Shown one piece after another: positions 15,987-58,257 of a DNA stretch of 64,000 bases. The position numbers and the translations under genes are program-made. A model generated the notes under the pieces. That model had not been told where the DNA came from. It worked only from the letters and a program-made list of their open reading frames with translations, and did no database searches. The stretch is from a virus. Positions within the stretch are counted from its first letter, which is position 1. Every line of letters starts with the position of its first letter. The stretch is taken from IMG/VR virus record IMGVR_UViG_3300024259_000012, one strand, 5' to 3'.

Positions 15987-16217
15987 ATGTATTTCGATGA
16001 TGAACCATACGACAAAAGAAAACACGATTGGAACAAGAAGCAATATTCCAAGAGACCACATAGGGTATGAAAGCGTAATTTTAAGACGCCGGATTTAGTT
16101 ATCCCTAAAACAATTAAATATAAATGTACAGGTTGTCTAACTGTATGAGTAGATGATGAATTAATGAATGGCGGCTGTCCGGCTTGCCATACAGATGATT
16201 GGTTAAAGGAGTTATAA
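15987..16217 (+). CDS. Zn-ribbon protein with 2 in-frame TGA codons (read as Trp)
   Basis: TGA at 16068 and 16146; reads YKCTGCLTV[W]VDDELMNGGCPAC; ends TAATG-coupled to the next gene. Confidence 0.7.
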
Positions 16218-16473
16218 TGAATTTGAAAGATAAGGTAGACCTTGCACTACTCACTTTAAAGTGTCCATGTGGTGAAGTTAGAAGGTATAAAACATTGAAA
16301 GCTTGGGAACCCCTGTTACATCATAGTAGAGTAACGGAGACGCCTATGTTATGTCTCATAACAAGGCTGGGTGGAAGCCTATTGAAGATGCTGGAGAAAG
16401 CCGGACGTTCAGCCATTATGCAGTTGGTTATGGATGGGAAAGTCCTGATTGGAAACATAAATTTTAAAAAGAC

Positions 16474-16502
16474 TTGACATGGCTTGTGTTGCATATTAAG
16501 TT
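16474..16502 (+). promoter_or_regulatory. Sigma70-like promoter of the tRNA-like RNA
   Basis: TTGACA-17 nt-TAAGTT. Confidence 0.65.
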
Positions 16503-16526
16503 ACTCATGCTTTTTGAAGGGGATTA

Positions 16527-16724
16527 CTGTTGAGTGAGGATGTTAGGCAATAGTAAGTCCAACTGAGGAGAAGTTGATATCTGGGCGGCGTAGTGGCTTG
16601 AAGGATAAAGACTGAAACCGAGGGGACTCCCATTAACACTAAATGGGGAAGTCTGCTGAAACCGATTAACGGGATACCTTGTCAGTGTTGGCAAGCGTGT
16701 GAGTTCGAGCCTCACCGGACAGCA
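16527..16724 (+). ncRNA. ~200-nt tRNA-like structured RNA
   Basis: T-arm GTGAG-TTCGAGC-CTCAC (16699-16715) followed by CGGACAGCA; D-arm-like GGAT..GG..GTCC at 5' end; several internal hairpins; own promoter and terminator; no canonical anticodon arm. Confidence 0.6.
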
Positions 16725-16732
16725 AAAGAATT

Positions 16733-16763
16733 AAAGGGAGTCTATCGAAGGCTCCCTTTTTTT
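16733..16763 (+). terminator. Rho-independent terminator
   Basis: AAAGGGAGTCT-ATCGA-AGGCTCCCTTT followed by T run. Confidence 0.8.
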
Positions 16764-16795
16764 ACTATACAATTTAAAGAAAAGGAAACTATCAA

Positions 16796-17434: not shown

Positions 17435-17769
17435 ATAAGGCGGCGTTGTGGCGTCGTACTATTGAGACGCCATTTCGAATAGCTTATCAATCAGGGGCTT
17501 CTGCATGAAGTACACAAATAGAGCACCCACTGCGAACCCAGTCATAAAGCCTATGGCGATGTCTTCAAGATTTTTCATTATACTAACTCTCCGTCCTTAT
17601 TGATTACACCCTCTGAATACAATACGTGCATAACGAATAGCTCACGGGTGTCTGTTGAGTAGACGCCGCCCATATTGTATATATATACCGTTTGTGTTAA
17701 ATCCTTCATGTGTATTCCTTTTATTTTTATTTGTATCCGATTCTATAATACGCCGTGATGGCGAGCTAT

Positions 17770-17997
17770 TCAATATAGTTCAGATTCATAGACCTTACGA
17801 CCGAGTAGCTTCTCAAGGCGTTTCCATTCAGCCTTCAATTTACGGAGCCTCGCCATGGCTCGGGTCTTACTAATCTCCCCATCCATATAAAGGTTCTCAG
17901 GAGACATCTGATTTAACAGATTCTCAAAGGGCGTCATATCGCTTGGATACTGATGTTCGTTGTGCATGTCAATCATGGCGTCGCTCATTTTACTCAT
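17770..17997 (-). CDS. Conserved phage early protein
   Basis: SPENLxxDGEIS...LE..LGRKV.E motif; TGA stop. Confidence 0.65.
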   Translation of the reverse strand: MSKMSDAMIDMHNEHQYPSDMTPFENLLNQMSPENLYMDGEISKTRAMARLRKLKAEWKRLEKLLGRKVYESELY

Positions 17998-18295
17998 TTG
18001 GTGCTCCTCAATTGTGGGTTAACAGAATTCCATAAAGACGCCCTTACGATAGCGTCCTTCTTATAGTGCTCAAAGTCCACAAGTGCCCCGTGAACGCCGA
18101 TGCGTGTATCTACTATATCCCAGCCCTGTCCGGATTCGGTCTTGCGTACAATGTAATTGGTGGTGCTCATTTATGCACTCCTAAATTTTGTGTTTTCTTT
18201 ATATACCCAAGTGTTTCCGCAAATGAAAACTCCACCCTTAGCATTCCAAATTCCAAAGGTTGCTCCAAGGTCATATTTCTGTCCGTCGATTAACT

Positions 18296-18727
18296 TCATG
18301 CGGTCACCTCATAATTTCTGTCCCAACGTCCAACATTAACATTGACATACCAGCCAACGTGGAAGTAGTCAGTCATCGCATCAGACTCATCAAAGTTCTC
18401 ACGGCTCGTATTTGCGCCGTTCAGGATTGGTAAGACCTCAGCGAAGAACGCCTTGGCCTCTCCATCATACCAACGGTCAGTATGGAAGATGTTCACTTGG
18501 TCTCGTGTGGCGTCCTGATATTGGGCGTCGCTCCCATAACGGCGTTTGGTTAGTATCCTGCCCATGCGGTTGTAAGACTCCATGAAATCTATCTTGCCAC
18601 TGAATAGATTCAGTACTAAGACACTGTGGTGGTTAACACCCAGACGCCCCTTCACTCCATACTTCTTCAGGATGGGCTTCAGGTTGGCGTTGATTTCCTT
18701 CTTATGCTCTTGGGTCATGTAACTCAT
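18296..18727 (-). CDS. Conserved phage early protein
   Basis: LKKYGVKG...FDESDAMTDYFHVGWY...VGRWD; TGA stop. Confidence 0.75.
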   Translation of the reverse strand: MSYMTQEHKKEINANLKPILKKYGVKGRLGVNHHSVLVLNLFSGKIDFMESYNRMGRILTKRRYGSDAQYQDATRDQVNIFHTDRWYDGEAKAFFAEVLPILNGANTSRENFDESDAMTDYFHVGWYVNVNVGRWDRNYEVTA

Positions 18728-18737
18728 TTGTATCTCC

Positions 18738-18956
18738 CTATCTGTATAACGTTACGAAGCTACCGAAGTAGCCTTCAAAAGTTTCAACCAAAGTCTCATA
18801 ATCTCCAGCAGTCATCTCAGCCAATACCACTTCGGCGGGCAAATCCAATTGCTTAGCAAGCTTCTCAGCCATGCCAATCAAATAGAAGGCGTTTCCCTGT
18901 GGACCGGTCAGGTCGATTGACAACTCCTGCTTTAACTCTGTTACTGATTTCATCAT
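18738..18956 (-). CDS. Conserved phage protein
   Basis: IDLTGPxGNAFYLIG...MxxGDYExLV..F..FG. Confidence 0.75.
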   Translation of the reverse strand: MMKSVTELKQELSIDLTGPQGNAFYLIGMAEKLAKQLDLPAEVVLAEMTAGDYETLVETFEGYFGSFVTLYR

Positions 18957-18965
18957 CGTGGGTTC

Positions 18966-19445
18966 CTTTCCCTTACGCTACCAATATAATGATATACAAG
19001 GGCGGTGTCAAGCATTAAAATAAATAAATAAAAAGCTTGCATATGCGCCTCCTGGATGTTAACTTACAAGGCTATACTGCTCGGCAAAAATAAAGTCTGG
19101 TATATCCCAGAAGGTAACCCTGGCGTCGCACAAAGTCAAGCTAATTCTTTTCTTTATTTAGTGCTTGACATTGGCGTTGTAGAATGTTAACTTAGAGGAG
19201 TGAGGGAGCGAAGGGTGCCCAACGGGGAAGGTCGTCTCGTCTAAAAAAACTTATAAGACGACAGGGGGCGTTAGGCGCACTCTCTCCCTCACACTATAAT
19301 ATAACATGCGGGACGCCCATATGCAAGGGAAAAGAAAAAGCTTGACATTGGTGCCGTGGCGTCTTAACTTACTATGCTATGGTGGCTGAAAAAAATCAGG
19401 ACGCCTATAGCCTTTTAAGTTAAGCACCAGGTGGCACAATGTCAA
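18966..19445. promoter_or_regulatory. Cluster of seven alternating sigma70-like promoters
   Basis: -35 boxes at 19006(-), 19037(+), 19134(-), 19165(+), 19321(-), 19342(+), 19440(-), each ~17 nt from TAACTT/TATATT/TACCTT. Confidence 0.75.
19200..19292. ncRNA. Candidate rod-shaped small RNA between convergent promoters
   Basis: Nested pairings GTGAGGGAG/CTCCCTCAC, GTGC/GCAC and GTCGTCT/AGACGAC with internal bubbles. Confidence 0.45.
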
Positions 19446-19702
19446 GCTATTTATTTTCTTTTTTCGTGTGTTTAATAGAAGCTAAGTGTTCAAAGGCTGA
19501 AGGCGTCCCACTATCCAATAGCACATATGGTGGCGGCTGGGAAGAGCATGAGATTGGAGACATTGTAACCGTTGGTCTTCAAACTGTTAGAATAAAGGAC
19601 TTAAACACCGGCGTTGTATATGAAAGTATAAAGGACGCCGCTAAAGACTTGGGGCTAACCAGTGGCATCGTTGGAAGTCGTAAACAGTTTCTACGGATTT
19701 AG
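19439..19702 (+). CDS. NUMOD1-like DNA-binding domain fragment (start uncertain)
   Basis: VRIKDLNTGVVYESIKDAAKDLGL. Confidence 0.4.
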   Translation: MSSYLFSFFVCLIEAKCSKAEGVPLSNSTYGGGWEEHEIGDIVTVGLQTVRIKDLNTGVVYESIKDAAKDLGLTSGIVGSRKQFLRI

Positions 19703-19883
19703 CTTGTATATATGTATATTCGTATGTATATTCTGCCTGCCTAAGAGACGCCTCATGAGCGTTTCGACTCAGGGGCACCCGCATGAGGCGGAGAGTATAA
19801 AGCCCAAGAGAAGAGTGAACTCCGGCGTCGCAAGGCGTCGGACTCACTTAATAGGAATCAAATGAAATATTATGGAGTGGTCA

Positions 19884-20489
19884 TTAGCTACGGTTAAAAA
19901 GGTCAATCAGACGACCGCCAAGCTCTTCCATCATATCATCCCCAGAAGGGGTGTCCTGCTCCAGAACGCCTTCAGTAGATATCTCCTGTTTGGGCGTCTC
20001 AAACCTCTCAAGCCTGTTGTGCTTATGTTTACGCTTGCGGGTTCATTCCATGAAGTAACAATTCAAACAAAGCATTTCCAAATTCTCGGCGGCGTAGTTC
20101 TTTTCGTCGTTGTCCTTGAAGGATAGCATAATAGGCATCTTGCCGTCGTGCTCTCTTGTCTCCTCATATCCACACGAATTACAACACATAGCTAACTTGC
20201 CCTCACGTAGCAATTTGAGGCCGAATTTGACGTGCTCAGGACGACCTGGGATGGCGGCACCGGTTCAGTGCGTCTTCCTTGTACGGGCTATTCCTGCTGA
20301 CGATTTATTCGGCGTTCAAATTTCGTATCTTATAGCGTATTTGCGAAACGTAACGTAGGCGACGCCAAGATACTCAGCCGCCTGTTTCATCGACTCAGTG
20401 TGCATAATGGCCTCTTGGCAGTCCTTAAATGGGATTGGTTTGTGTCGGTATGGGTCGTGACCCTTACTTCATTTAGATGTGTTTTCCAT
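19884..20489 (-). CDS. HTH plus HNH-like (Zn) protein of 201 aa with 4 in-frame TGA (Trp) codons; absent from ORF track
   Basis: AAAGGAG RBS; SMKQAAEYLGVAYVTFRKYA (HTH); CNSCGY...IMLSFKDND.KN...ENLEMLCLNC; TGA at 20469, 20316, 20265, 20043; no TGG in the gene. Confidence 0.8.
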
Positions 20490-20492
20490 AAT

Positions 20493-20600
20493 TAAAACTC
20501 TCCTTTGTTAAAACTCTACATAAAACTGGTGGGACGCCTACATAAAACTCTACCTATAACTCTGTAGTTTTAATTCCGGCGGAAAAGAGTTTTATGTTTG
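20493..20600. repeat. Second cluster of TAAAACT(C)/AGTTTTA repeats
   Basis: 6 copies plus 1 variant directly upstream of the HTH-HNH gene. Confidence 0.75.
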
Positions 20601-20723
20601 GGCAGGTGCCTTTCTTCATATATATAGGTATATATATTGTACCCTTATCTATACAATAAGTATCAGCGTACCAAGAAATGCCACTAAAGGCGTTCTATTG
20701 GCGTTCCATGGCGGCGTAATGAT

Positions 20724-20927
20724 TCACCAAGACTTGGGTTCCATTGGCAAATTGTTGACCTCCCCAATGGATACCGCTCGCTTCATCAATTCAGGACACC
20801 CCTCACACATATTATATAATTCATTCAATACAAGCCACTTATCTCCGGCTACTAAATGCAAGTTGCGGCGTCCATTCAATGTAACACAGTAGTTCTCGCC
20901 TTTTATAATTTTGTATTGTCGGTACAT
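20724..20927 (-). CDS. YKQY-family paralogue 27
   Basis: MYRQYK...CVTLNG. Confidence 0.75.
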   Translation of the reverse strand: MYRQYKIIKGENYCVTLNGRRNLHLVAGDKWLVLNELYNMCEGCPELMKRAVSIGEVNNLPMEPKSW

Positions 20928-21166
20928 TATGTGACTTGAATAAAAGCTCGGGCGTTCAGGCGTTCTTCAAAGTCCTTGACTGTTATCATTTCAAACGTCG
21001 GACCATAAATACAACCATCATTGGGCGCACGAAACCAAGCTACTTCATTGTTCATGTACAGCCGCTTGCCATTCATCCAGATGCATTTTTTATTTTTGCA
21101 CTTGGAGCATAATTGGTATTGTTTGTACCTTATAGTGCTTCGTAACGAAGATTGATTATTAAACAT
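20927..21166 (-). CDS. YKQY-family paralogue 26
   Basis: YKQYQLCSKC..CIWMNG. Confidence 0.75.
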   Translation of the reverse strand: MFNNQSSLRSTIRYKQYQLCSKCKNKKCIWMNGKRLYMNNEVAWFRAPNDGCIYGPTFEMITVKDFEERLNARAFIQVT

Positions 21167-21386
21167 CAAAATACTTTCCATACTCTTCAATAGTATGCTT
21201 TAGTGTCATTGGCTTAAACAGCTTATCAGGACATCGTGAATCATCAATTGACGTGTAAGGAAACTTGATAGTTCTTGCCGCCCAAATGTGTTGCATGACT
21301 ATTATTCCATTCTTGGTTATACAATATGACAGATGGCAGTTCTTGCATATATTGTATTGCTTATATTCTGATATTTTGTATCTCAT
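21159..21386 (-). CDS. YKQY-family paralogue 25
   Basis: YKQYNICKNC..CITKNG. Confidence 0.75.
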   Translation of the reverse strand: MRYKISEYKQYNICKNCHLSYCITKNGIIVMQHIWAARTIKFPYTSIDDSRCPDKLFKPMTLKHTIEEYGKYFDV

Positions 21387-21562
21387 AATACTGCCTTTAT
21401 TCTTACCGTTCTACAATCCGCTTCGGGTCTACAGTTGTCTGGCATATCTTTGTTAGTCGGCACAATATGTGTTAGATTATCAAAATACTCATATACTATG
21501 CCATTCAATGAAGTGCATGTAAACGACTCACACGAGCATACTCTGTATTGTCTATATGCCAT
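21383..21562 (-). CDS. YKQY-family paralogue 24 (59 aa, not in ORF track)
   Basis: MAYRQYRVCSCESFTCTSLNG. Confidence 0.75.
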   Translation of the reverse strand: MAYRQYRVCSCESFTCTSLNGIVYEYFDNLTHIVPTNKDMPDNCRPEADCRTVRIKAVL

Positions 21563-21754
21563 GCTTCACTTCCTTTACATTCACAAATTCAAATTCAGCG
21601 TCCTTGCATTCTGTTTCGGGGTCATCCTCAACTACTGACATTTCATCTCGCTCTTGAGACCACCATGCGTATCTTGTACCATTCAATGAGTAGCAAAAGT
21701 AATTACGACATTTCGTACAACGTCTATACTGTTATATGATGCGGCCAAGTCCAT
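21552..21754 (-). pseudogene. YKQY-family paralogue 23 with a 1-nt deletion in the K codon
   Basis: MDLAASY(K)QYRRCTKCRNYFCYSLNG; sequence reads TATAACAG instead of TATAAACAG. Confidence 0.65.
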
Positions 21755-21941
21755 CTCTCACTTCCGGTACTTCGTTTATTTTTATTAGTATCCTATCCGA
21801 TTTTGTATCACTACAATCTTGAGCCGCTACTGAAACTAACCACGTTTGGTCGGGTCGCATCAATGCTATCCGGACGCCATTCAAAACTATACAGCCTCGT
21901 GACCATTGGCACATACATTTATGATACTGCTTATACTTCAC
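21732..21941 (-). CDS. YKQY-family paralogue 22
   Basis: YKQYHKCMC..CIVLNG. Confidence 0.75.
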   Translation of the reverse strand: MKYKQYHKCMCQWSRGCIVLNGVRIALMRPDQTWLVSVAAQDCSDTKSDRILIKINEVPEVRDGLGRII

Positions 21942-22122
21942 GATAATCTATTTCCTTACGAGTCATCGGGCGTTTCTCACGTTCTGCGAGTGGCGCACTA
22001 CATACGCCCTCATCCTCATAAGTAAACAGTCCCAATTTAGATAACCTTGAATATACGTTGCCATTCAATATCCAACAGATACTGTACTTGCATTCGCAAT
22101 GAGTGTGTTGCTTGTATTGCAT
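21931..22122 (-). CDS. YKQY-family paralogue 21
   Basis: MQYKQHTHCEC..CWILNG. Confidence 0.75.
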   Translation of the reverse strand: MQYKQHTHCECKYSICWILNGNVYSRLSKLGLFTYEDEGVCSAPLAEREKRPMTRKEIDYREV

Positions 22123-22319
22123 TAACATACGCACGGCCATTCGAAGCAAGTCCAACACGGCATTCTATCTTCTGCCTGTTGTATTGATACATGTTGGGGC
22201 ACCCTCACTATACACCTCCGGCAATGCTCTTCATAATTTTCAGTGAAATGCTGTTGTCCATTCTTCATGAGCAGAACAGCCGCCGAGCATTCACACATCT
22301 TGTATTGCTTATAGTTCAT
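22122..22319 (-). CDS. YKQY-family paralogue 20
   Basis: MNYKQYKMCEC...KNG. Confidence 0.75.
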   Translation of the reverse strand: MNYKQYKMCECSAAVLLMKNGQQHFTENYEEHCRRCIVRVPQHVSIQQAEDRMPCWTCFEWPCVC

Positions 22320-22506
22320 ATGGTAATTTACTTATTATCAATTTGGCAAATTTGTGATTGACCGTGCATAGGATATAATCTAAGTCGCATGTTGGCGTAG
22401 CATATAGCCATTGGCCAAGAGCAAACATTGCGTATCTATTATCATTTAAAAATAAACAGCCCTTCTTATCACATTCATTACACAGTTTATATTGTTTGTA
22501 TTGCAT
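22309..22506 (-). CDS. YKQY-family paralogue 19
   Basis: MQYKQYKLCNEC..CLFLND. Confidence 0.75.
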   Translation of the reverse strand: MQYKQYKLCNECDKKGCLFLNDNRYAMFALGQWLYATPTCDLDYILCTVNHKFAKLIISKLPYEL

Positions 22507-22675
22507 TTGCTTCCTTAATCGTTATAGGCTTTCCATTCATATCAGGGCACGCCCGCAATTCATTAAGAATCTTACGCCATCTCCGTTTGTGCCTAAATGC
22601 ATATCGTTCTCCATTAAGCAGAATGCATTCACCCAAGCGACAATCACAATCTTTGAATTGTTTATACTGTCCCAA
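22487..22675 (-). CDS. YKQY-family paralogue 18
   Basis: QYKQFKDCDC..CILLNG..ITIKE. Confidence 0.75.
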   Translation of the reverse strand: MGQYKQFKDCDCRLGECILLNGERYAFRHKRRWRKILNELRACPDMNGKPITIKEANAIQTI

Positions 22676-22850
22676 TTCGAGTTACCTTCCAGTTGGCCTT
22701 CTTACACTTGTTATCATAATTCTTTTCATCCCAATTATTAAAATATGTCATAAATCCAAGTTTGGCGTTCTGTGCTTGTAGGACACCATTCAGTGATAAA
22801 CATAAATACTTCTTGCATTCACAGCGACGCCATTGTTTATACTCATTCAT
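22662..22850 (-). CDS. YKQY-family paralogue 17
   Basis: MNEYKQWRRCEC..CLSLNG. Confidence 0.75.
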   Translation of the reverse strand: MNEYKQWRRCECKKYLCLSLNGVLQAQNAKLGFMTYFNNWDEKNYDNKCKKANWKVTRIGTV

Positions 22851-23058
22851 AATTACTCTTGTGAACATCCGTCACTCTTTGCAATTCCCAATCAGCTTTT
22901 CGACAGTCATCATTGACTTTTACTGTGGATATTGTTGGCATGGGATATTGGTCTTTATCCACCCTTTCATATCGGACGCCATTCAGCGACGAACATATAA
23001 AACGTTTACACGCATCACATTGCCTGAGTTGCTTGTATTCTATATTACATTGTCTCAC
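22843..23058 (-). CDS. YKQY-family paralogue 16
   Basis: EYKQLRQCDAC..CSSLNG. Confidence 0.75.
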   Translation of the reverse strand: MRQCNIEYKQLRQCDACKRFICSSLNGVRYERVDKDQYPMPTISTVKVNDDCRKADWELQRVTDVHKSNYE

Positions 23059-23258
23059 TTTTCGCCCTTCCATTTAAGCAAGTCGTCAGCCGCTGAGATT
23101 GACATAACATCCCCGCTTTTAAAGCAAGTTGGATATGGAAGTGTTACGTTTTCCAATATAACATCCGCTTCCTTTGATTCAAAGTATATTCTCCGACCAT
23201 TTAATGATATGCAGTGACCCCCGATGCAATCACAAGTATTATATTGTTTATACTTCAT
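23055..23258 (-). CDS. YKQY-family paralogue 15
   Basis: MKYKQYNTCDC..CISLNG. Confidence 0.75.
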   Translation of the reverse strand: MKYKQYNTCDCIGGHCISLNGRRIYFESKEADVILENVTLPYPTCFKSGDVMSISAADDLLKWKGEK

Positions 23259-23448
23259 GCTTCAGTTGTCCATTCACATGCTTGATTGATATTTGCTGTT
23301 GATTCATCTTATCACTCCCGCAATTATCTTGAGCATGATACCACGCTTGTATCCGCTTGCGCTGAAAATATTGGCGTTCTCCATTCAGAGTGAGACATTT
23401 ATAGTCCTCGCATTCACTGCATATTTGATATTGCTTATACTGAGTCAT
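23248..23448 (-). CDS. YKQY-family paralogue 14
   Basis: MTQYKQYQICSEC..CLTLNG. Confidence 0.75.
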   Translation of the reverse strand: MTQYKQYQICSECEDYKCLTLNGERQYFQRKRIQAWYHAQDNCGSDKMNQQQISIKHVNGQLKHEV

Positions 23449-23657
23449 ATCCGCTTCGATATGTAAAGTGCCTTGATGACCCAAATGGCAGTTGGCGTGT
23501 GCGTCTTCCCGTTGCACCACTCGTGAGGTTCACTCACTTCTCCTGGGTGCCCCTCTTTTAATTCAGTCCAGTGGTCTTTATATATCATTCGTCGGCGACC
23601 ATTTAAAAAGACGCACCGGCGGTCATCACACATGCAGTATTTATATTGCTTATACAT
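23445..23657 (-). CDS. YKQY-family paralogue 13
   Basis: MYKQYKYCMC..CVFLNG. Confidence 0.75.
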   Translation of the reverse strand: MYKQYKYCMCDDRRCVFLNGRRRMIYKDHWTELKEGHPGEVSEPHEWCNGKTHTPTAIWVIKALYISKRI

Positions 23658-23805
23658 TCTTGCCTTCCTTAATCGTGATGGCTTTGTATATCCCAGACAT
23701 GCAATTTGGCGTTCTATCAGGTGTTGACCGAATAAGCCGCCCGTTTAGCATAAGGCATTCACATCCGCATTTTGTGCATAATCGGTATTGTTTATATTGG
23801 GTCAA
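23650..23805 (-). CDS. YKQY-family paralogue 12 (51 aa, TTG start, not in ORF track)
   Basis: TQYKQYRLCTKCGCECLMLNG..ITIKE. Confidence 0.75.
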   Translation of the reverse strand: MTQYKQYRLCTKCGCECLMLNGRLIRSTPDRTPNCMSGIYKAITIKEGKNV

Positions 23806-23977
23806 AACTGTATATCTCTTTTAATAATTTGTAAGCTTCTCGTATTGTCATTTGTCGGGTCAGTCCGCCGCCTTGGCACTTCCGGAAGGAGTTATCAGTG
23901 CTGACCAATTTTCCATTTTTGCTTATGCATAGGGCACCCGAACATTTACATAATTTGTATTGCTTATAGTCGGTCAT
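23792..23977 (-). CDS. YKQY-family paralogue 11
   Basis: MTDYKQYKLCKC..CISKNG. Confidence 0.75.
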   Translation of the reverse strand: MTDYKQYKLCKCSGALCISKNGKLVSTDNSFRKCQGGGLTRQMTIREAYKLLKEIYSFDPI

Positions 23978-24140
23978 ACGTTTCCTTTATATTCTTTGCC
24001 CGCTTAATCGTTATATGTTTGAAGTCCGCCTTTTGGCATAACGAGCAGGCTATTTTTGATTCTATGACCAATTTTTTGCCATTCCGAATAAGGAATAGGC
24101 TTCTCTCACACGTACATAATCTACATTGTTTATATGCCAC
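23964..24140 (-). CDS. YKQY-family paralogue 10 (58 aa, GTG start, not in ORF track)
   Basis: AYKQCRLCTC...IRNG..ITIKR. Confidence 0.7.
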   Translation of the reverse strand: MAYKQCRLCTCERSLFLIRNGKKLVIESKIACSLCQKADFKHITIKRAKNIKETYDRL

Positions 24141-24321
24141 GGGTCAATTCCTTCACTCGCTTAATTGGCACCGAGGCGTACTTGGTCTCCCCGCTACACT
24201 CATCATCTGTTGGTGCAGTTGTTTGCCACTTATCCCATTTTCTATATACCCGCTGACCATTTAATTGAATGCATTTCCACGTTTTACATTTCGTGCATAA
24301 TGTATATTGTTTATAGTTCAT
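24130..24321 (-). CDS. YKQY-family paralogue 9
   Basis: MNYKQYTLCTKC..CIQLNG. Confidence 0.75.
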   Translation of the reverse strand: MNYKQYTLCTKCKTWKCIQLNGQRVYRKWDKWQTTAPTDDECSGETKYASVPIKRVKELTRGI

Positions 24322-24523
24322 TTTCAGCTTCCCATACTGTGGCGTCCCACAGTTTTGTTACTATTGGCTTATCATTTGGTCGCATTTTACATATTCGCAG
24401 TGCGCCCTCATGACCATCATTCCGCAAATATCTACTTGGTAAATAATTCATCCGTATTTCCCCATTTAGGAATATACACGAATAGCCCAAGCAGGTGCAT
24501 ATTTTATATTGCTTATACTTCAT
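24311..24523 (-). CDS. YKQY-family paralogue 8
   Basis: MKYKQYKICTC..CIFLNG. Confidence 0.75.
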   Translation of the reverse strand: MKYKQYKICTCLGYSCIFLNGEIRMNYLPSRYLRNDGHEGALRICKMRPNDKPIVTKLWDATVWEAENEL

Positions 24524-24738
24524 CCGAATATCTTACCCAGTAAATGGTGGTCTCGCACTTCCTTGATTGCTACGGGTTGTAGATTCTCAGGGTCTACGCA
24601 TTGTTCTGATTCGTCATCATATAGCTTTGGTGAAGTAATATTCGTGACATGGCTTATTCGAATGCCATTCAGATATACGCAATCTACGATGACGACGCCC
24701 AAGGCGCATTTGCATTTGTGGTATTGTCTATAACTCAC
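24520..24738 (-). CDS. YKQY-family paralogue 7
   Basis: SYRQYHKCKC..CVYLNG. Confidence 0.75.
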   Translation of the reverse strand: MSYRQYHKCKCALGVVIVDCVYLNGIRISHVTNITSPKLYDDESEQCVDPENLQPVAIKEVRDHHLLGKIFG

Positions 24739-24934
24739 GGACTTCCCCTATTGATATTGAGACTAAGCTTATGTCCCGTTCGCAATGATAATCTTGTATT
24801 CCATCTTTGGTCGTCCACCATTGATTATCTTCTTTGTAATAGGCTACCTTACCATTTAGGAATACGCACTCTTGCGATGGCCATTGAGGCTTATCGTTGC
24901 ACCCTTTACATATCCGATATTGTCGGTAGGTCAT
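24728..24934 (-). CDS. YKQY-family paralogue 6
   Basis: MTYRQYRICKGC..CVFLNG. Confidence 0.75.
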   Translation of the reverse strand: MTYRQYRICKGCNDKPQWPSQECVFLNGKVAYYKEDNQWWTTKDGIQDYHCERDISLVSISIGEVREL

Positions 24935-25003
24935 GCTGTTATTCTGTCCATTTTTAAATGGACAGACTTTGTGTGCTTATACCTCACTTGGGAAGTTCCG
25001 CCT

Positions 25004-25231
25004 TTAGGCGAGTGTTCCATTTGGTAGGGGTGTAGCGGTGAATTCATACATTTCCTTTATTGTAATGTGTACCCATTTTTTGGGCTTGGTGCAATTCTCT
25101 GCGTAGTGCTTGAATGCTGTTCCGGTTCCCATATATTCGTTGTCGCCATTCTTTATATAACCGGCTGTTCCGTTTTTCGTTAAGCACTCGTTCCCGCATT
25201 CCATGCATAGTTTATATTGCTTGTAATTCAT
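25004..25231 (-). CDS. YKQY-family paralogue 5
   Basis: MNYKQYKLCMEC..CLTKNG..ITIKE. Confidence 0.75.
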   Translation of the reverse strand: MNYKQYKLCMECGNECLTKNGTAGYIKNGDNEYMGTGTAFKHYAENCTKPKKWVHITIKEMYEFTATPLPNGTLA

Positions 25232-25436
25232 GTATCAACCTCCGAATTTCTATTTCGTCTCGGGTTGTTCTGAATTTGAAGTTACTGAAATTGTTTGGAC
25301 ACGCCTCTTCATTATTGGATGGCATCCATGACCGGCATCGCTCAATAACCTGTATTGCCATGTGCCCGTTGAGACTGATGCACTCCACATTTATGCAGTT
25401 TGTGCATATCCTGTATTGTTTATATTTTGCTAACAA
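25212..25436 (-). CDS. YKQY-family paralogue 4 (TTG start)
   Basis: KYKQYRICTNC..CISLNG; GGAG RBS. Confidence 0.75.
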   Translation of the reverse strand: MLAKYKQYRICTNCINVECISLNGHMAIQVIERCRSWMPSNNEEACPNNFSNFKFRTTRDEIEIRRLIHELQAI

Positions 25437-25626
25437 AATTATACTCCACCGTCTCGTGTCCATCATATAACGTTTTGAAGTTCTCTCTTAGCGGGCAGGT
25501 AGATTCTTCTAATTCCCCACGAACTCCCATAATCATATCATTACCATAGCGTGTAGTTATCCGACCGTTCACACTCTTGCATATCCAATCTTTACAATAG
25601 CACTGTCTGCGTTGCTTGTATTGCAT
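25420..25626 (-). CDS. YKQY-family paralogue 3
   Basis: MQYKQRRQCYC..CKSVNG. Confidence 0.75.
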   Translation of the reverse strand: MQYKQRRQCYCKDWICKSVNGRITTRYGNDMIMGVRGELEESTCPLRENFKTLYDGHETVEYNFVSKI

Positions 25627-25847
25627 TAGCTCGTTATTCGTATCCATTTTATCAAATCCTCTGACTCTTGAATGGATAGAGAATTTGGATGGCATGTCCA
25701 TGGTGCGTCGCATTGGGATTCAAGTAGGTGCCAATCAAGGCCGTGGTCACCCATTACCTCTTTTTTCTTTCTGGCTATCCGAATTCCATTAAGAAACATG
25801 CATTCGTACCCGATGCAGATGTGCCCGTTGTATTGTTTATAACTCAT
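25626..25847 (-). CDS. YKQY-family paralogue 2
   Basis: MSYKQYNGHIC..CMFLNG. Confidence 0.75.
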   Translation of the reverse strand: MSYKQYNGHICIGYECMFLNGIRIARKKKEVMGDHGLDWHLLESQCDAPWTCHPNSLSIQESEDLIKWIRITS

Positions 25848-26035
25848 GGGAACCCAAGCTCCTTCACCTCTTTAATAGTTTTGCGGTTGGATTGTTCACA
25901 GCACATGAGTTTGCACCCCAGTGCCGGACTGACCCATGCGACATCATTAACATCCTTGAAATATTTTACCTTACCATTTTCTATAAGGCACATACCCACG
26001 TAGCAACCGCCTAATCTGTATTGTTTATATTTCAT
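25844..26035 (-). CDS. YKQY-family paralogue 1
   Basis: MKYKQYRLGGC..CLIENG..KTIKE; apparent leaderless start just behind TTGCGG...TATATT. Confidence 0.75.
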   Translation of the reverse strand: MKYKQYRLGGCYVGMCLIENGKVKYFKDVNDVAWVSPALGCKLMCCEQSNRKTIKEVKELGFP

Positions 26036-26096
26036 CGTCTATAATATATTATTATTATGCCAGTCCGCAAGGATTATTTTTAATTGAAGAAAAGAC

Positions 26097-26143
26097 TTGA
26101 CTCAAGTGCAGTGTATCACTATATTAAGGCATGAGAAAAGGAG
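26097..26143 (+). promoter_or_regulatory. Early promoter element copy
   Basis: TTGACT-17 nt-TATATT-AAGGCATGAGAAAAGGAG. Confidence 0.7.
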
Positions 26144-26148
26144 AACAC

Positions 26149-26496
26149 ATGAACTTTGAGAGAGAAAACTTCCGTATTGATGGAATGTATGTGAGCTATG
26201 ACAAGTCAGGAAATGCTAAGACTTGGGGAGACTTCACCTTCGTAGCACGCTTCAAGTATCGTGGCCGAGACAAGGGTAGCTTCATCACCTTTCTGATTAA
26301 GAATTTCACAGTAGAAGAATACTTTGGTCGCATTGACTCTGGGGAATCACCTGGAGAGATTTTAAAGTCAAAGGGTTATGTCGCCGCCAGTATCAAACGT
26401 GATTTGAAGCGGGCAGGATATGCTCCAACGCTTGAAGGATACGACGCTTACATTAAAGCTCAAGTTGAAAAATACCAAGCAAGGACAGCATCATGA
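26149..26496 (+). CDS. Conserved phage early protein
   Basis: FVARFKY...FITFLIKNFTVEEYF; TGA stop in ATGA overlap. Confidence 0.7.
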   Translation: MNFERENFRIDGMYVSYDKSGNAKTWGDFTFVARFKYRGRDKGSFITFLIKNFTVEEYFGRIDSGESPGEILKSKGYVAASIKRDLKRAGYAPTLEGYDAYIKAQVEKYQARTAS

Positions 26497-26707
26497 GTGG
26501 AATGACTCCCAAAAAGCTAAGGGAAATTGTTGAAATAACTGATTTACTTCCCGACCCCACCAAAGCTGATACTTGGTTCCTTGCCCGTGATGATGGCACA
26601 ATTCATGAGGACAACTCCACGCTTAAAGATTTAATGTTCAAACAGCATCAGGCTGAAGTCCAACTTGAAGCGGTCAAACAAAAGATTCGAAGGTTGATAG
26701 AAATCGC

Positions 26708-26757
26708 TTGACATAGGATGCGTGTGCTATTAACTTAGTAGCGTATGAGAAAAGGAG
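26708..26757 (+). promoter_or_regulatory. Early promoter element copy
   Basis: TTGACA-17 nt-TAACTT-AGTAGCGTATGAGAAAAGGAG. Confidence 0.8.
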
Positions 26758-26765
26758 ACTCAAAC

Positions 26766-28843: not shown

Positions 28844-28849
28844 AATGAC

Positions 28850-28897
28850 TTGCACTTGGCCCCTCAATAGGTTAAATTAATAGCGTAATGAGAGAGG
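28850..28897 (+). promoter_or_regulatory. Early promoter element copy
   Basis: TTGCAC-17 nt-TAAATT-AATAGCGTAATGAGAGAGG. Confidence 0.75.
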
Positions 28898-28905
28898 ACT
28901 CCCAA

Positions 28906-29487: not shown

Positions 29488-29501
29488 GAGGAGATTTACT
29501 T

Positions 29502-37026: not shown

Positions 37027-37194
37027 CTATGCTTTATCATTGGTGAACCTATCTGGATATAACTCTCAGATTTTACTCCGGATTGGAAATTTTATTGCGT
37101 ATTCAAGTTGGTGTACATATTTGTACACGTCAGACGTGACCTCAACCTTTATCATTTTACCGGTGGAATCTAATACATTTAGCGTTTGGTTCAT
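37027..37194 (-). CDS. Small hypothetical protein with 1 in-frame TGA
   Basis: TGA at 37066 in SKI[W]ELYPDRF; fills the gap between neighbours. Confidence 0.5.
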
Positions 37195-47324: not shown

Positions 47325-48254
47325 TTATAACCCTTCTATTGATTTGTCCCACTGCTTCAGAAATGCTTCCTCTGAATAGTGTAGTTCATACAAGTTGCGT
47401 GCCATCTTTGAGCAATCATTGTAGAAATGCTCATCGGTTTTCAATCTACGTGCTATTTCTTTGGCTTTGGCGATATCACCCACCTTAACACTTGTATATG
47501 GGTGCAGTCGCTGTGTATTCACATTGTCGTACCCAATGCATGGAATTCCCTGATACGCACAATTCAAGTTGAAGGTGCCTGCCGATGGCGTTCCCATTTG
47601 AATGCCATACTTGAACCCACCCAACAATTCTATCCATTCCGACCACCGCATCCATGGATGGTGCGTAATGTCCAACATGTCTTCCTCCGGCTTCATCCTG
47701 CCAGTTGTCAAAGCGTGCACCTCTGTGTCCAATTCTAAGGCCACCTGATATGAATCAAACCCACCATAAGCCTGTACCATGTTGCCGCCCATCATGACCC
47801 CTTTACGGACGCCTACGTGCGGTTTTACATAGTCTGTAATCATTAATGAGTGTAGCAGTTCAGTGCGTACACCGGTCAATCCTTCATAGTAAAGTCTATC
47901 AGAATCGTTGTGGGCGAATAAAACGTCCATCTCGGTCAATAGGTTGAAATACCAAATTTGTTCTGCTATCTCATTGTCTTGCCAATATGTACAGGTTCCC
48001 TCTTGCATGGCTCCAACCTTCTTACAAGCTCGCTTCATGTGTTCAAGGATTGGCCATTCCAAAAGGTAATCCTTTTGCTTTGGAATGATTATAATTCCGA
48101 TATCAAACGAATCGTCCGGAATCCCATCTATCACATTGAGTGGAATGTGGACAGCTTTAAGACTTGCAATTCATGCCAATTCCGTTCGCATGTTAACTTG
48201 TTCTCGTGGAATCATCCCCGTGTAACCAGCTTCTGAAAAGAATGCTATTTTCAT
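47325..48254 (-). CDS. GT-B-like glycosyltransferase with 1 in-frame TGA
   Basis: TAATG-coupled start MKIAFFSE; TGA at 48171 (NMRTELA[W]I); AGTF.LNCAY.GIPCIGY. Confidence 0.7.
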
Positions 48255-53810: not shown

Positions 53811-54327
53811 TGAAAATTACTCCATGTAATTTTAGCAGGGAAACGTTGTGGTCTACACACACATCTTCAACCCTACCGTTTAAATATAAATACAAATCTA
53901 CGTCGTTCAACACGTTGGTATACAAGTCTTCCGAATCCAACATGATATGTTTTATTAACCCCGTGGCCAATAGGCTGTCCAAATTTAATACACCCTTCAA
54001 GGTCTCAATCTTGGGCACGAACCCAACACCATCAGGCAGTGCATCACATATCACTTTTACTTCGGTCACGTCCTCAACATTGGATACTGCGAAATATTCA
54101 ATGTTGTCATGCTTGGCCATTTCAGTCAAAGTTTCGTTCAATGGAATTGTGGGAACGGGTGGTTTGGTTCTACCCTTTGGATAGTCCAAAAATACAGGGT
54201 GCCCGCACTTCAAAAATTTACGCAACTCCGCCATATCCTTGACATGCGCCATGTTGATACGAACCACCACATCTTCCAACTTTTGAAATTGTGGTAGTCC
54301 TAACAAGTGATTAGATATTAGTATCAT
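53800..54327 (-). CDS. Pyruvate kinase/HpcH-like TIM-barrel protein
   Basis: RINMAH, FLDYP.GR.K, PKIET..GV.NL. Confidence 0.55.
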   Translation of the reverse strand: MILISNHLLGLPQFQKLEDVVVRINMAHVKDMAELRKFLKCGHPVFLDYPKGRTKPPVPTIPLNETLTEMAKHDNIEYFAVSNVEDVTEVKVICDALPDGVGFVPKIETLKGVLNLDSLLATGLIKHIMLDSEDLYTNVLNDVDLYLYLNGRVEDVCVDHNVSLLKLHGVIFNDS

Positions 54328-54664
54328 TTAATGCCTCCCGTATTTTCGTAGCCGAAATAGCTTCAATTTCTGCAGGCGGCTCATGTTCTATAATACCATA
54401 CCCAACATCTCTACCATAATTAACCGATTCAATCGCCGGAATTACTGTCAACGATACAAGGTCAGCTTCAATTTCAGCTTCATATCGTTTTTGCAAATTC
54501 CCATACACCTCTCATGATGTGTAAATGTTTTTCTCACCATCGGGTTCCAAGTCCATAATAGCAATTGCTACAAACTTACCCTCGTTCAACATCTTTGTAA
54601 CCATTCACGCATGTCCATCATGGAACGGTTGAAATCTACCAATATACAATGACCACTTTTTCAT
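54311..54664 (-). CDS. Cytidylyltransferase-like (HxGH) protein with 2 in-frame TGA
   Basis: IGRFQPFHDGHA[W], YGRDVGY, ISATKIR; TGA at 54605 and 54512; TAATG-coupled start. Confidence 0.85.
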
Positions 54665-55455
54665 TATTCAACGTCTCCTTTGTATTCGCCCTTTAAAAAT
54701 TCTATAAATGTGTCCACTTGAACAAACAACTGATTGTGTATTTCTGCGGACATCTCTTCATTTTCATCTTGGATATCTTCAAGTGACCTACCGGATTCTT
54801 CAGCCAATTTTCTGTCGGGTCGGGTTATCATATCCCGTGACCCTGCCCAATGATGATATATTTTATCCTCATACAATCCAAAATACAATGGATGGTAATT
54901 TACAACATTGCTCCGCTGTACTGGATAGTAATTAAATTTATCATTGTCCTTTAACCATTGCACAACACCACCGAGCCAGTTACCTTGCGCACTTGTCATT
55001 TTTCTGCTCATTGGATAATCAATACCCTCGTTCAAATATTCTGCGGGGAAGCACCAAAAGGCACAGTGTGGAATCTTATGGTTTTGGTCCCACTCGTGGT
55101 TTGGCTCTTCCAGTCCAACAAATGGATACTCTTTCAACTTTCCAAGTGCCCACTCATCTATATCCTCTACCGGAAATGCATCAGAATCAAACACCATAAT
55201 GGTGTCGCCATCTTCCATGGCTTCCTTTACAATCGGAATCAATAATTTGAATGCGTCGCTTTGATGTGAAACTTCACCAACCTTGCCTTGTAAACATACG
55301 TCAAATTTGAAGCTGTTTCGCTCATACTCTCCCTCAGACATATTACCCAACCGAGTGTATGTTCTATAATCTTGTTTGATATGTCGGGCGAAAGCACGGG
55401 TCTGAATATCAATCCAATGTTCAGATGCCCAATGTACTGTTAAAATATGAATCAT
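54664..55455 (-). CDS. GT-A-like protein
   Basis: FDSDAFP; YHH.AGSR. Confidence 0.55.
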   Translation of the reverse strand: MIHILTVHWASEHWIDIQTRAFARHIKQDYRTYTRLGNMSEGEYERNSFKFDVCLQGKVGEVSHQSDAFKLLIPIVKEAMEDGDTIMVFDSDAFPVEDIDEWALGKLKEYPFVGLEEPNHEWDQNHKIPHCAFWCFPAEYLNEGIDYPMSRKMTSAQGNWLGGVVQWLKDNDKFNYYPVQRSNVVNYHPLYFGLYEDKIYHHWAGSRDMITRPDRKLAEESGRSLEDIQDENEEMSAEIHNQLFVQVDTFIEFLKGEYKGDVE

Positions 55456-55463
55456 AATTTTCC

Positions 55464-56381
55464 TTACTGTATTGGCATGTCATTGAAACCGGACTTGCTC
55501 TTATCCAATTTTGATTGGTCTGCATCCACAAGCCTAAATCTTGCTTGAACCTCTGTATTTTGCCGAACATACTCTTCCTCAAATCGCTCAAAATTGGCGA
55601 TGTCAAATTTGGTGTTCGGTATGTATTCGGGATTCTTAAAGTATGCCCGCAATGCTTCCGTTTCAGTCTCCTGAAAAAATTCAAATTTTATTGCTTCTGC
55701 CAAGCCGCTCCTTTGCAACTGTGAATATATTTCATCATGTGGACTATGCAACACATCCGATACTGTCATGTGTTCATACACGCCCGCTATCTTATTCACG
55801 TTAGCAGAACTTGAAAAGAAAAATGCGTCGTATAATCTCAATCGTTCAGCCTGAAATGCCTGTAGCCACTTTTTAGTGTGGCAGTCGCAGGTTGTGTCTG
55901 TCCAATCACGGCTTTGAAATTCAGGTGCTCTAACACCATCAACCCAACCGTGCGGTTTGGTGTGTCTGAAATACACATATTGGTTATCAAATTTTTCAAA
56001 ATTCAGGGGAACAAAAAACACATGGTCAAATCTATATACCATAACCCAATCATACTCAAATCCGTGTTCTTTCTCATACTCAGTTTTCAAATTTACAGAC
56101 ATTGCCGTTGAATACCAACGACTCGCTATTGCGTTGTCTCTAATTGTAGATTGCCCGAAATTTATCTGTGGCTCTACAATATAGTCTTTTGGATTGTATA
56201 AGTCAAGTAGTATTTTCTCATGGTCAACACTCCAACTGTGAATGAATACATCCACATCATTGTGCTCAAATATATTTTTGTTGTGGAAGTAGTGCCCTAA
56301 TCGTGGGTCAATGTCCTTACCCAACCCCATTCCGAAATTGGATGCCCCGACGATTCCTGGCAAGCATAGTGCGATTCTCAT
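55464..56381 (-). CDS. Glycosyltransferase-like protein
   Basis: MRIALCL.G, DVFIHSW, YDWV..RFD. Confidence 0.6.
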   Translation of the reverse strand: MRIALCLPGIVGASNFGMGLGKDIDPRLGHYFHNKNIFEHNDVDVFIHSWSVDHEKILLDLYNPKDYIVEPQINFGQSTIRDNAIASRWYSTAMSVNLKTEYEKEHGFEYDWVMVYRFDHVFFVPLNFEKFDNQYVYFRHTKPHGWVDGVRAPEFQSRDWTDTTCDCHTKKWLQAFQAERLRLYDAFFFSSSANVNKIAGVYEHMTVSDVLHSPHDEIYSQLQRSGLAEAIKFEFFQETETEALRAYFKNPEYIPNTKFDIANFERFEEEYVRQNTEVQARFRLVDADQSKLDKSKSGFNDMPIQ

Positions 56382-57454
56382 TATATCAATTCCTTTAGGT
56401 CATGTGAATTTCTAACCATGTTCACCGCTGTGGCTGTTGGGAATGAATTTGTTGGCGAGTAGTCGTTCACCAATACCCTCTCACAATGCATCAGGTCAAA
56501 TATAATTTGATGATAACGAATGTCCAATCTATCCAATTGCTTCAAGGTCACCTCTTTGAATGAACTCTTCCTGCTTGTGGTAATTATGACCCTCACTGTC
56601 CCACTATCATACATTTCATTGATGATATCCACATTTTCCTGTATAGCTCCGGTGGTGCCCCAAATTGGTTCAAACATCTCACTTGAACTGTTTACAAGCA
56701 CACCATCCAAGTCAATGAATATCGTCTTGTAGCGTTCTTTGTATTTGTTCCAATCTGCAAGGGTGCCCCAATCTTCATAGTTGGTAACCTTAGAAGTTTT
56801 AAACAGTTTCCCATCAAGCACTTGCTCAAAAATAACGTGCGATATAAAAATTTCAGGGTCGGTGGACTGTGCGGGTCTACTGAATGATTGTGTAGCCTTC
56901 AGAGCCTTGAAGGTTTCCACGAACTGTTCTGCGCTACTGAAGCTATATCCACCACAACAAAACTTGTCGCTGATTATACGCTTCTCTACAATATTTGTGA
57001 CGTTCTCCAAGTGGTCAACGGTTACATAGCTTTTGTTCTTGGCTATGACCTCTTCCATGTCATACAATGAATAAACCGATACCATGTTTGGTTCAATGGG
57101 TCCGGTAACAAAGTAGTCATCACAATCCTTGATGTAAATTTCACCTTCAATATTAGCCTTCTGAATTGTTATTGCTACCGTCTCGCTCTGTGAAGATGTT
57201 GGGGTGTCAAGACCAATCAATTCAAATGGTAGACCAAACTTTTCAAATGAGTCATATATTGCGGTTTGTAATCCATATTTTACAACATCATATCGCATGG
57301 CAGTCATCACAATCCTGTCAAAATTAGACAAGTCAATTCCAGACATACCTTCAACAATCATCAGTTCACCATTTGGGTGAGTCAGTGACCATTTAGGTCG
57401 CATATTAGGATATCTTGTGCTTGCACCGGCGGCGGGTAATATTAACGTAAACAT
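56381..57454 (-). CDS. Sugar nucleotidyltransferase-like domain fused to HAD phosphatase
   Basis: LPAAG.STRYP..PKW, EK..IS, DWGT; IFIDLDGVL, TSR, VND. Confidence 0.8.
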   Translation of the reverse strand: MFTLILPAAGASTRYPNMRPKWSLTHPNGELMIVEGMSGIDLSNFDRIVMTAMRYDVVKYGLQTAIYDSFEKFGLPFELIGLDTPTSSQSETVAITIQKANIEGEIYIKDCDDYFVTGPIEPNMVSVYSLYDMEEVIAKNKSYVTVDHLENVTNIVEKRIISDKFCCGGYSFSSAEQFVETFKALKATQSFSRPAQSTDPEIFISHVIFEQVLDGKLFKTSKVTNYEDWGTLADWNKYKERYKTIFIDLDGVLVNSSSEMFEPIWGTTGAIQENVDIINEMYDSGTVRVIITTSRKSSFKEVTLKQLDRLDIRYHQIIFDLMHCERVLVNDYSPTNSFPTATAVNMVRNSHDLKELI

Positions 57455-58257
57455 AGTAAATTTATCTCCTTTAATAACATATCAATTATAACCTTGTCTG
57501 TTGCATACGGCACGATTCTCATCAAATTCAAAATCTGAAATGGAACGTAGTATTTTTTGTAATACTCCTCATCAGAAAACGTGGCCGTGAATTGCCTGTC
57601 TATGTATGTAAAAACCTGTTGCAGTCGTACTCTATGCTCCATGTTCCCCAATAGATACAATGACCAAAAATAATGCGTGTCCTGCCTGACCTTAACAATG
57701 TCTTGCAATGGGCTGTCCAAGAAGGTATCCAAAAAATCTATTAATGCAACCTCATTATTATAAAACAGCATATTTGAGAATGTCAAGTCTCCATGGCAAT
57801 ATCCCATTGGAATATCAATGGTGTCATCAAGCTCATAAAATAGTCAATCCAAATGGCTCATGACAATTCCATGCGCTTTGAAAATATCAGTCTTCACCGA
57901 CTCAAACTTGTCAACCACAACCTTGCGACTAACCGACCCAACCGATTCAATGTTGGAACTAACAAATGCACAAAGTCTTCCAATGAAAGCATCCAACTGG
58001 TCTTTTGTTGCTACTATGAAAAATTGGTCAAATGACTGATATGGTAATAATTCCATTTCAAATGAAAATATACCATCATCGGTAATATCAAAATCATAAA
58101 CTTCAGGACAGCCGAAATACTCACTCTGAAACCGCTCCTGTTTTATTCATTGGTTTTTCAACCGATTTGAATATTTGGGCGAACCCGACCGTTTTACCAA
58201 ATGGTCATTTACTATCTCAAATGTACAGCCGGAATGACTGAGTGCATCAAATTTCAA
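57442..58257 (-). CDS. APH/choline-kinase-like phosphotransferase with 2 in-frame TGA
   Basis: HSGC, CHGDLTFSN, LIDFLD; TGA at 58147 and 57844 join three pieces in frame. Confidence 0.8.

Follow-up and report, generated by a model that had tools for sequence, protein, structure and literature searches.

Two uses of TGA, as a tryptophan codon and as a stop codon, are partitioned by operon in an uncultured marine T4-like myovirus

The 64,000-nucleotide stretch of DNA analysed here (the window) comes from the IMG/VR virus record IMGVR_UViG_3300024259_000012 and belongs to the genome of an uncultured T4-like myovirus of marine origin that uses the codon TGA in two ways. Twelve genes of the window carry 21 in-frame TGA codons in total and read UGA as tryptophan, while in other operons of the same genome UGA is a functional stop, and these two uses are partitioned by operon. 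Exact-protein walking extended the window to a 140.8-kb scaffold that spans window coordinates -25.5k to +115.2k and stops some 5.6 kb short of the upstream end of the source contig.

When TGA is translated as a sense codon, each of the twelve genes (Table 1) forms a frame that is otherwise open from a start codon preceded by a Shine-Dalgarno sequence to a TAA or TAG; the start is ATG in eleven genes and TTG in 57442-58257. An earlier note, made on this DNA from its letters alone, had named these twelve genes and counted 21 TGAs in them, and all of these coordinates and codons are borne out; the single correction is to 19884-20489, which is a minus-strand gene. With TGA as a stop throughout, the products would reach only 3-36% of full length in eight genes, 70-78% in three and 3% in the HNH gene. 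According to a codon-usage score trained on the long open reading frames (ORFs) of the window, the frame continues to score as coding after the sense TGAs, mostly at 6 to 70 bits, and is clearly positive on both sides of most of the 21. By contrast, the score is about zero after the terminal TGAs of 27 other genes, where the next stop lies 0-24 codons on. Pfam domains also span the sense codons, with Epimerase covering residues 7-217 over codon 28 and DUF5662 covering residues 9-180 over codons 64 and 103, and the GxxGxxG and HxGH motifs do lie upstream of the TGAs, as had been reported. An internal repeat that had been put forward as a control (KIW.../SI[TGA]...) is likewise real; it lies in the endonuclease gene and places a TGG-encoded tryptophan opposite a TGA. 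In agreement with the earlier reading, TAA and TAG show no sense use: zero genes need such read-through, and every same-frame TAA/TAG junction falls at or beside a called gene boundary.

Sense TGA is a minority codon (~6-8% of tryptophan codons, at 40% GC), with 21 TGA against 345 TGG in the window and ~54 TGA in ~31 genes against 659 TGG across the scaffold, where the TGA-bearing genes outside the window include sheath, RecA and an SSB-like gene. The codons are clumped by gene (17 TGAs in 11 genes, P=0.003), and 19 of the 21 are followed by a purine, compared with 63% of TGG codons (p=0.01). The purine count had already been given in the earlier note and is correct, although the bias is modest, hardly distinguishes sense TGAs from terminal ones (p=0.04) and is weaker outside the window (24/32). 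TGA is the first tryptophan codon in 7 of the 12 genes within the window (7.2 expected) and in 16 of 19 genes outside it (8.3 expected), the latter figure relying on provisional gene starts. A 5' skew of sense TGA within the window is not significant (p=0.13 to 0.26), and the apparent skew arises in part from how sense TGAs are detected, since those close to the C-terminus resemble stops. Standard (code-11) gene callers split all twelve genes and public assemblies carry the same fragments; annotation of this phage and of its glycan cluster therefore needs code-aware prediction.

The amino acid inserted at UGA can be read from homologues, which we drew from four IMG/VR jumbo-phage contigs, 80 marine metagenome loci with the glycosyltransferase and two database searches. 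Alignment at the TGA sites, a check that had been proposed with the original observation, revealed conserved tryptophan at six of them: glycosyltransferase codon 28 (81/81 relatives, all TGG), endonuclease I-like codons 135 and 150 (31/34 at each) and 65 (4/5), DUF5662 codon 64 (3/3) and cytidylyltransferase codon 20 (3/4). Elsewhere the relatives carry histidine (two of three) or tryptophan (one of three) at DUF5662 codon 103, phenylalanine in all eleven relatives at codon 58 of the HNH gene, tryptophan in 2 of 9 at its codon 75, and histidine in 18 of 23 with a single tryptophan at epimerase codon 28; the other four TGA sites with homologues are variable, and seven of the 21 sites are without a homologue. 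Pooled over aligned residues, tryptophan stands opposite TGA in 62% of cases, which is equal to the value for the window's own TGG codons. These data demonstrate that UGA encodes tryptophan in these genes. Other sense meanings of UGA exist, namely glycine (code 25) in Absconditabacteria, Gracilibacteria and their phages, and selenocysteine, but that UGA here encodes glycine, cysteine or selenocysteine is highly improbable, given that the conserved residues opposite TGA are tryptophan or else aromatic or histidine, that glycine appears once in 253 aligned residues and cysteine at one variable site only, and that Rfam gave no match to a selenocysteine insertion sequence (SECIS) or tRNA-Sec.

The TGAs themselves are genuine and not artefacts of assembly. 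By exact-protein look-ups the phage turns up in over 20 JGI, ENA and Logan assemblies that are 99.98-100% identical to the window, and at the 11 of 21 sites that they cover the codon is TGA in every covering assembly, with 1 to 9 independent assemblies per site; the code-11 gene calls of these other assemblies split the same genes. Only one G-to-A change separates TGG from TGA, but it is next to impossible that mistakes in sequencing or assembly, or mutations that inactivate the genes of a decaying phage, gave rise to identical TGAs in up to nine independent JGI, ENA and Logan assemblies, to an in-frame codon that is always TGA and never TAG or TAA (21 sites here, ~54 genome-wide), and to sites that sit at conserved tryptophan positions in enzymes with intact motifs.

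In other operons, TGA ends genes. In blocks C and D taken together (17578..30489), TGA is the stop of 18 among 43 genes, in many cases by ATGA overlap, and when blocks are pooled TGA terminates 22/52 genes in A, C and D versus 3/85 in B and E2 (p=1.7e-8), in keeping with the prior claim that terminal TGA is rarer in the recoded regions than in the early-type blocks. Stop-start coupling follows the same division, with 10-11 ATGA overlaps in A, C and D vs 2 in B and E, and 1 TAATG overlap in A, C and D vs 16 in B and E, just as had been described for the TGA-stop blocks and the recoded regions, respectively. In all, 27 genes end in TGA, 12-13 of them in ATGA coupling. Homologue-level evidence for termination at TGA comes from the gene at 32972-33457, whose five homologues have C-termini of the form ...I(I/V)LD or ...IVLE. 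Six paralogues of an array at 20.7-26 kb end in TGA as well, four of them overlapping the start of the next paralogue as ATGA. We conclude that UGA is a functional stop in operons other than those that use it as tryptophan. An enrichment of back-up stops after terminal TGA was considered and rejected: 11 of 27 have a second stop within 2 codons, which does not differ significantly from genes ending in TAA or TAG (p=0.15). The array itself (20724-26036, minus strand) is a tandem series of ~24 diverged small paralogues built on an M-x-YKQY...C..C...NG scaffold, with a conserved TATAAACAAT(A)ATG at the junctions between paralogues.

Operons with TGA stops also carry a specific sigma70-like promoter module, a conclusion supported by its frequency and its placement. 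The module TTGACA-N17-TA(A/T)NTT occurs 8 times in the window vs 0.32 expected, and all nine copies found in 141 kb fall within the interval from -389 to 26736, where each is inside or next to a TGA-stop block except for the one at 16474. This restriction to the TGA-stop blocks and one RNA gene lends indirect support to a separation in time of the two codes. A leader of the type TAGCGTA(A/T)(T)GAGA follows five of the nine copies; the other four, including the copy of an RNA gene described below, are without it. By analogy with T4-like phages, we infer that the genes of this promoter-module class are early genes.

Table 1. Coordinates of the genes with sense TGA, the blocks, the promoter modules and two further elements; assemblies are independent assemblies in which the TGA was seen.
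Feature	Coordinates	Strand	Details
76-aa Zn-ribbon-like protein	15987..16217	+	Sense TGAs 16068-16070, 16146-16148; coding score positive in 3/3 segments
201-aa HTH/HNH-like endonuclease (HNH gene)	19884..20489	-	TGAs 20469, 20316, 20265, 20043 (4/4 Trp codons)
125-aa membrane-like protein	31671..32048	-	Sense TGA 31755-31757; TATAAATA 16 nt upstream of ATG
77-aa protein	35730..35963	-	Sense TGA 35799-35801; segment scores 12.7, 10.0
55-aa protein	37027..37194	-	Sense TGA 37066-37068; open frame and coding score
122-aa protein	37195..37563	-	Sense TGA 37498-37500; open frame and coding score
297-aa NAD-dependent sugar epimerase	39150..40043	-	Sense TGA 39960-39962 (codon 28); 1 assembly
258-aa endonuclease I-like protein	40033..40809	-	TGAs 40615, 40405, 40360 (codons 65, 135, 150); 1 assembly
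188-aa DUF5662 protein	43554..44120	-	TGAs 43929, 43812 (codons 64, 103); 2 assemblies
309-aa glycosyltransferase-like protein	47325..48254	-	Sense TGA 48171-48173 (codon 28); 8 assemblies
117-aa cytidylyltransferase-like protein	54311..54664	-	Pfam CTP_transf_like; TGAs 54605, 54512 (codons 20, 51); 9 assemblies
271-aa APH-like kinase	57442..58257	-	TTG start; TGAs 58147, 57844 (codons 37, 138); 7 assemblies
Block A	1-3.7 kb (129..3642)	-	TGA ends 4/9 genes
Block B	3.9-17.2 kb	+	TGA ends 2/38 genes
Block C	17.5-26 kb	-	TGA ends 9/28 genes
Block D	26.1-30.5 kb	+	TGA ends 9/15 genes
Block E2	33.5-64 kb	-	TGA ends 1/47 genes
Gene ending in TGA	32972..33457	-	Ends ...VILD-TGA-R-R-TAG in the window; five homologues end exactly there
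Promoter module TTGACA-N17-TAACTT	1659..1687	-	With conserved leader
Promoter module	2349..2377	-	With conserved leader
Promoter module TTGACA-17-TATATT	18983..19011	-	
Three promoter modules	19165..19445		19165+, 19342+, 19417-; divergent control region
Near-match TTGACT-17-TATATT	26097..26125	+	Head of block D; looser pattern only, outside the 8 strict copies
Strict module TTGACA-N17-TAACTT	26708..26736	+	Within block D and 29 nt ahead of 26766-26960
Stand-alone RNA, ~200-250 nt	16474..16765	+	Own TTGACA-17-TAAGTT promoter; strong terminator at end

The genes of the scaffold place the phage among the T4-like myoviruses. They include PolB, NrdJ, DnaB, RecA, a clamp loader, PNKP, Rnl1, Rnl2 and an NAD ligase, together with T4-type sheath, gp19, gp13 and baseplate genes. 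By PolB, the closest cultured relatives are Microcystis phage Mel-JY01 (44% identity) and T4-like cyanophages (~31%), and the likeness to them lies in the T4-type sheath, gp19, gp13 and baseplate; Mel-JY01 differs in that its only tRNA is Leu(UAA). Neither the window DNA nor one window protein has a match among cultured phages, and a 40-mer from the window does not occur in the viral_contigs collection. In the aligned parts of relatives at 43-59% identity we counted 3 TGA vs 1991 TGG, all three TGAs being at protein ends; of the phages sampled, then, this one alone shows the recoding. The near-clonal assemblies of the phage differ from one another in gene content just past the window end (L123:1-3190 vs L121) and in small ORFs upstream (L143/L144 vs L141), and many contigs break at shared points, one close to gp13 and the other around window coordinate -25k.

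How might one genome accommodate both meanings of UGA? On balance, we think it probable that the phage drives suppression of UGA to tryptophan on a standard-code host while its module operons keep UGA as a stop. Under this scheme the host would use the standard code, and the promoter-module operons would be translated first, with UGA read as stop and often with ATGA stop-start coupling. A phage-made or phage-induced suppressing activity would then insert tryptophan at UGA. Since suppression would come later, the TGA-bearing genes would yield full-length protein only at that stage, and the genes so gated would comprise glycan enzymes and nucleases in the window and sheath, RecA and the SSB-like gene further along the genome.

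Several observations weigh against this scheme. The two-code partition proposed in the earlier note holds at the level of operons and is not clean: the HNH gene with its four TGAs is located within TGA-stop block C, the stop of the sense-TGA gene 15987-16217 overlaps the start of the TGA-ended gene 16217-16477 in the same operon, and TGA stops occur at 32972 and 53094 on what had been called the 'late' or 'non-early' strand. That the promoter-module operons are free of sense TGA (0/77 tryptophan codons in A, C and D with the HNH gene excepted, vs 17/285 in B and E) is only weakly significant (p=0.03), and this significance vanishes if the HNH gene is counted. Nor do sigma70 promoters in general mark TGA-stop genes; the claim to that effect stands for the specific module and fails for the generic sigma70 consensus, a scan for which gave counts slightly above shuffles without separating the blocks and found perfect matches inside block E too. 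Finally, no dedicated recoding machinery came to light. ARAGORN and Rfam searches revealed no tRNA, transfer-messenger RNA (tmRNA) or other Rfam family in the window or the ~141-kb scaffold, and neither precomputed Pfam lists nor our own scans of ~141 kb contained release factor (RF) or tryptophanyl-tRNA synthetase (TrpRS) domains. The search that had been recommended for tRNA(UCA), TrpRS, RF1 or an RF2 inhibitor thus came back empty over ~141 kb of an incomplete genome. That the genome is incomplete follows from the scaffold, in which no capsid, portal or terminase genes were seen and the large unknown proteins have no such PHROGs match; the portion not recovered may encode a tRNA(UCA). In published surveys, a suppressor tRNA was found for only 15-35% of phages that recode TGA (bioRxiv 10.1101/2021.08.26.457843; PMC11210395). 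With no tRNA, TrpRS or release factor detected in at least three quarters of the genome, this phage therefore offers a concrete case for asking what recodes.

A temporal switch could be dispensed with if UGA were constantly and partially read through, either by the host tRNA-Trp(CCA) or by a constitutive suppressor that competes with RF2. In that case sense TGAs would serve as attenuators, holding down the output of selected genes, for example homing-type nucleases, and TGA stops would persist where a few extra residues are harmless. We regard this as possible and yet unlikely. It accords with the failure to detect a suppressor tRNA or code-change protein, with the overlap of 15987-16217 and 16217-16477, with 'late'-strand TGA stops that have a second stop 1-2 codons on, with the rarity of TGA among tryptophan codons and its bunching in few genes, up to 4/4 tryptophan codons in the HNH gene, and with the modest purine bias at the +4 position. 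On the other hand, sheath and other high-copy structural genes outside the window carry TGA, a costly arrangement if read-through were partial; TGA stops are nearly purged from two large blocks (3/85) and common in module operons, a pattern that speaks of operon-level and not gene-level logic; and back-up stops after terminal TGA are no commoner than after TAA or TAG.

Somewhat less likely still is a code change brought about without a canonical suppressor tRNA, whether by the ~200-nt RNA at 16474-16765 or by a phage protein acting either on host tRNA-Trp, through editing or modification, or on RF2, by disabling it. The RNA shares its early-type promoter with the TGA-stop operons, is the only tRNA-like element in 141 kb and is a candidate only. 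The 3' end looks like that of a tRNA with a long variable arm, a T-arm (GTGAG-TTCGAGC-CTCAC) and an acceptor strand; the T-arm is perfect and the acceptor strand possible, but the RNA lacks both an anticodon arm and a UCA loop. The RNA contains CTGAAACC twice and has no counterpart in relatives. An intron-bearing tRNA was rejected as its identity, as ARAGORN with introns allowed gave no tRNA, and neither did Rfam at E values up to 10 or a scan through every single deletion. If true, either route would be a new way of reprogramming decoding, with both codes marked by a recognisable promoter module. The scaffold also holds a T4-like RNA repair set (Rnl1, Rnl2, PNKP) along with R2K ATP-grasp and NUDIX genes, in L144/L146 upstream and L134 downstream, and no tRNA gene was detected.

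It is quite improbable that the host itself uses code 4 (no RF2) and that the phage follows it, with the TGA 'stops' being relics from standard-code phages that are read through to the next TAA or TAG. Such a host would sit well with the lack of a suppressor tRNA in 141 kb and with the near absence of TGA stops from the core-like blocks, and 81% of cultured phages with predicted code 4 do infect Mycoplasma or Spiroplasma (PMC11210395). Yet TGA makes up only ~6-8% of tryptophan codons at 40% GC, 27 genes end in TGA (12-13 with ATGA coupling, and including members of the array of ~24 paralogues diversified in situ), one TGA end is backed by homologues, and the relatives use the standard code. 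Moreover, the phage is clonal and occurs in more than 20 marine metagenome assemblies, and no abundant free-living marine bacterium is known to use code 4. A uniform, organism-wide code 4 was rejected on the same grounds, the 27 TGA-ended genes being without coding signal beyond their TGA.

Phage-driven suppression on a standard-code host has precedents, as mixed-code TGA-recoded phages and a model of code switching by infection stage are already published (bioRxiv 10.1101/2021.08.26.457843; PMC11210395). Code-4 gut phages, among them those of the Agate and the Jade clade (Borges et al., bioRxiv 10.1101/2021.08.26.457843), likewise use TGA as tryptophan in a subset of genes, have other genes compatible with the standard code and have close relatives that use the standard code, and the switch from standard to alternative code during infection proposed for them is the model that we apply here. 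Unlike those phages, which infect Firmicutes or Bacteroidetes of the gut, the present phage is marine and T4-like, its TGA is sparse (~6-8% of tryptophan codons), and it retains TGA as a frequent terminator (~40%) in module operons, whereas in the gut phages TGA is depleted genome-wide. Recoding in the gut phages falls mainly on lysis and structural genes and here extends to glycan-synthesis, nuclease and, outside the window, recombination genes. Only ~35% of such gut-phage genomes have a detectable tRNA(UCA); here none was seen in 141 kb, nor was RF1 or TrpRS. The TAG-recoded crAss-like and Lak phages (code 15) share with this phage a block-wise mixed code and suppressor-based logic but reassign TAG to glutamine, belong to other phage lineages and have a Bacteroidota host; for two crAss-like phages the alternative code has been validated by proteomics (PMC9523058). 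Mycoplasma and Spiroplasma phages, with native code 4, also read TGA as tryptophan, but their hosts use code 4 and TGA is never a stop, whereas here it ends 27 genes, one of them homologue-backed. We therefore regard this virus as a known kind of mixed-code phage, set apart by its marine T4-like lineage, its sparse TGA, the retention of TGA as a common terminator in defined operons and the failure to detect any code-change gene. A literature search for marine cases of such recoding found none, which is not proof of absence. To date, descriptions of mixed phage codes have come chiefly from gut metagenomes, and our observations extend the phenomenon to an abundant marine T4-like lineage with standard-code relatives, in which the operon-level partition is unusually clear and is marked by a conserved promoter-plus-leader module.

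A few further features of the TGA-bearing genes and their surroundings deserve mention. The homologue search for the 15987-16217 protein was empty. The TATAAATA motif is over-represented in the DNA (14 found vs 5.7 expected), one copy preceding the TGA-bearing gene 31671-32048. Homologues of the APH-like kinase are full-length (270-273 aa) and align over codons 37 and 138, both of which are variable positions. The closest kinase homologue (P0001, 80% identical) has been called only from the residue matching M68 of the kinase at 57442-58257; its upstream part may be interrupted too, in which case a nearer relative may share the recoding. Between 37563 and 38210 on the minus strand lies a well-scoring glycosyltransferase-like frame (...AFLIPIGDN...DADQ...) that has no canonical start near its apparent N-terminus and overlaps the end of 38192-39184 in a different frame; an unusual start, a frameshift or a fusion are possible explanations.

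The minus strand from 38192 to 64000 carries a large glycan or nucleotide-sugar cluster, with several epimerases, GT2 and GT4 transferases, radical SAM/SPASM, sulfotransferase, APS kinase, aminotransferase, PIG-L deacetylase and hexapeptide transferase genes and a kinase, and with counterparts at ~50% identity in many marine metagenome contigs and in the IMG/VR contig G001. Separate from this cluster is a match to a TAGT-family glycosyltransferase (PF20691) at 4065-4940. Two genes on the minus strand are anti-defence candidates, namely 35964-36749, which matches Pfam Anti-Pycsar Apyc1 (E=3e-22), and 34040-34501, which is T4 gp30.3/NADAR-like (E=2e-27).

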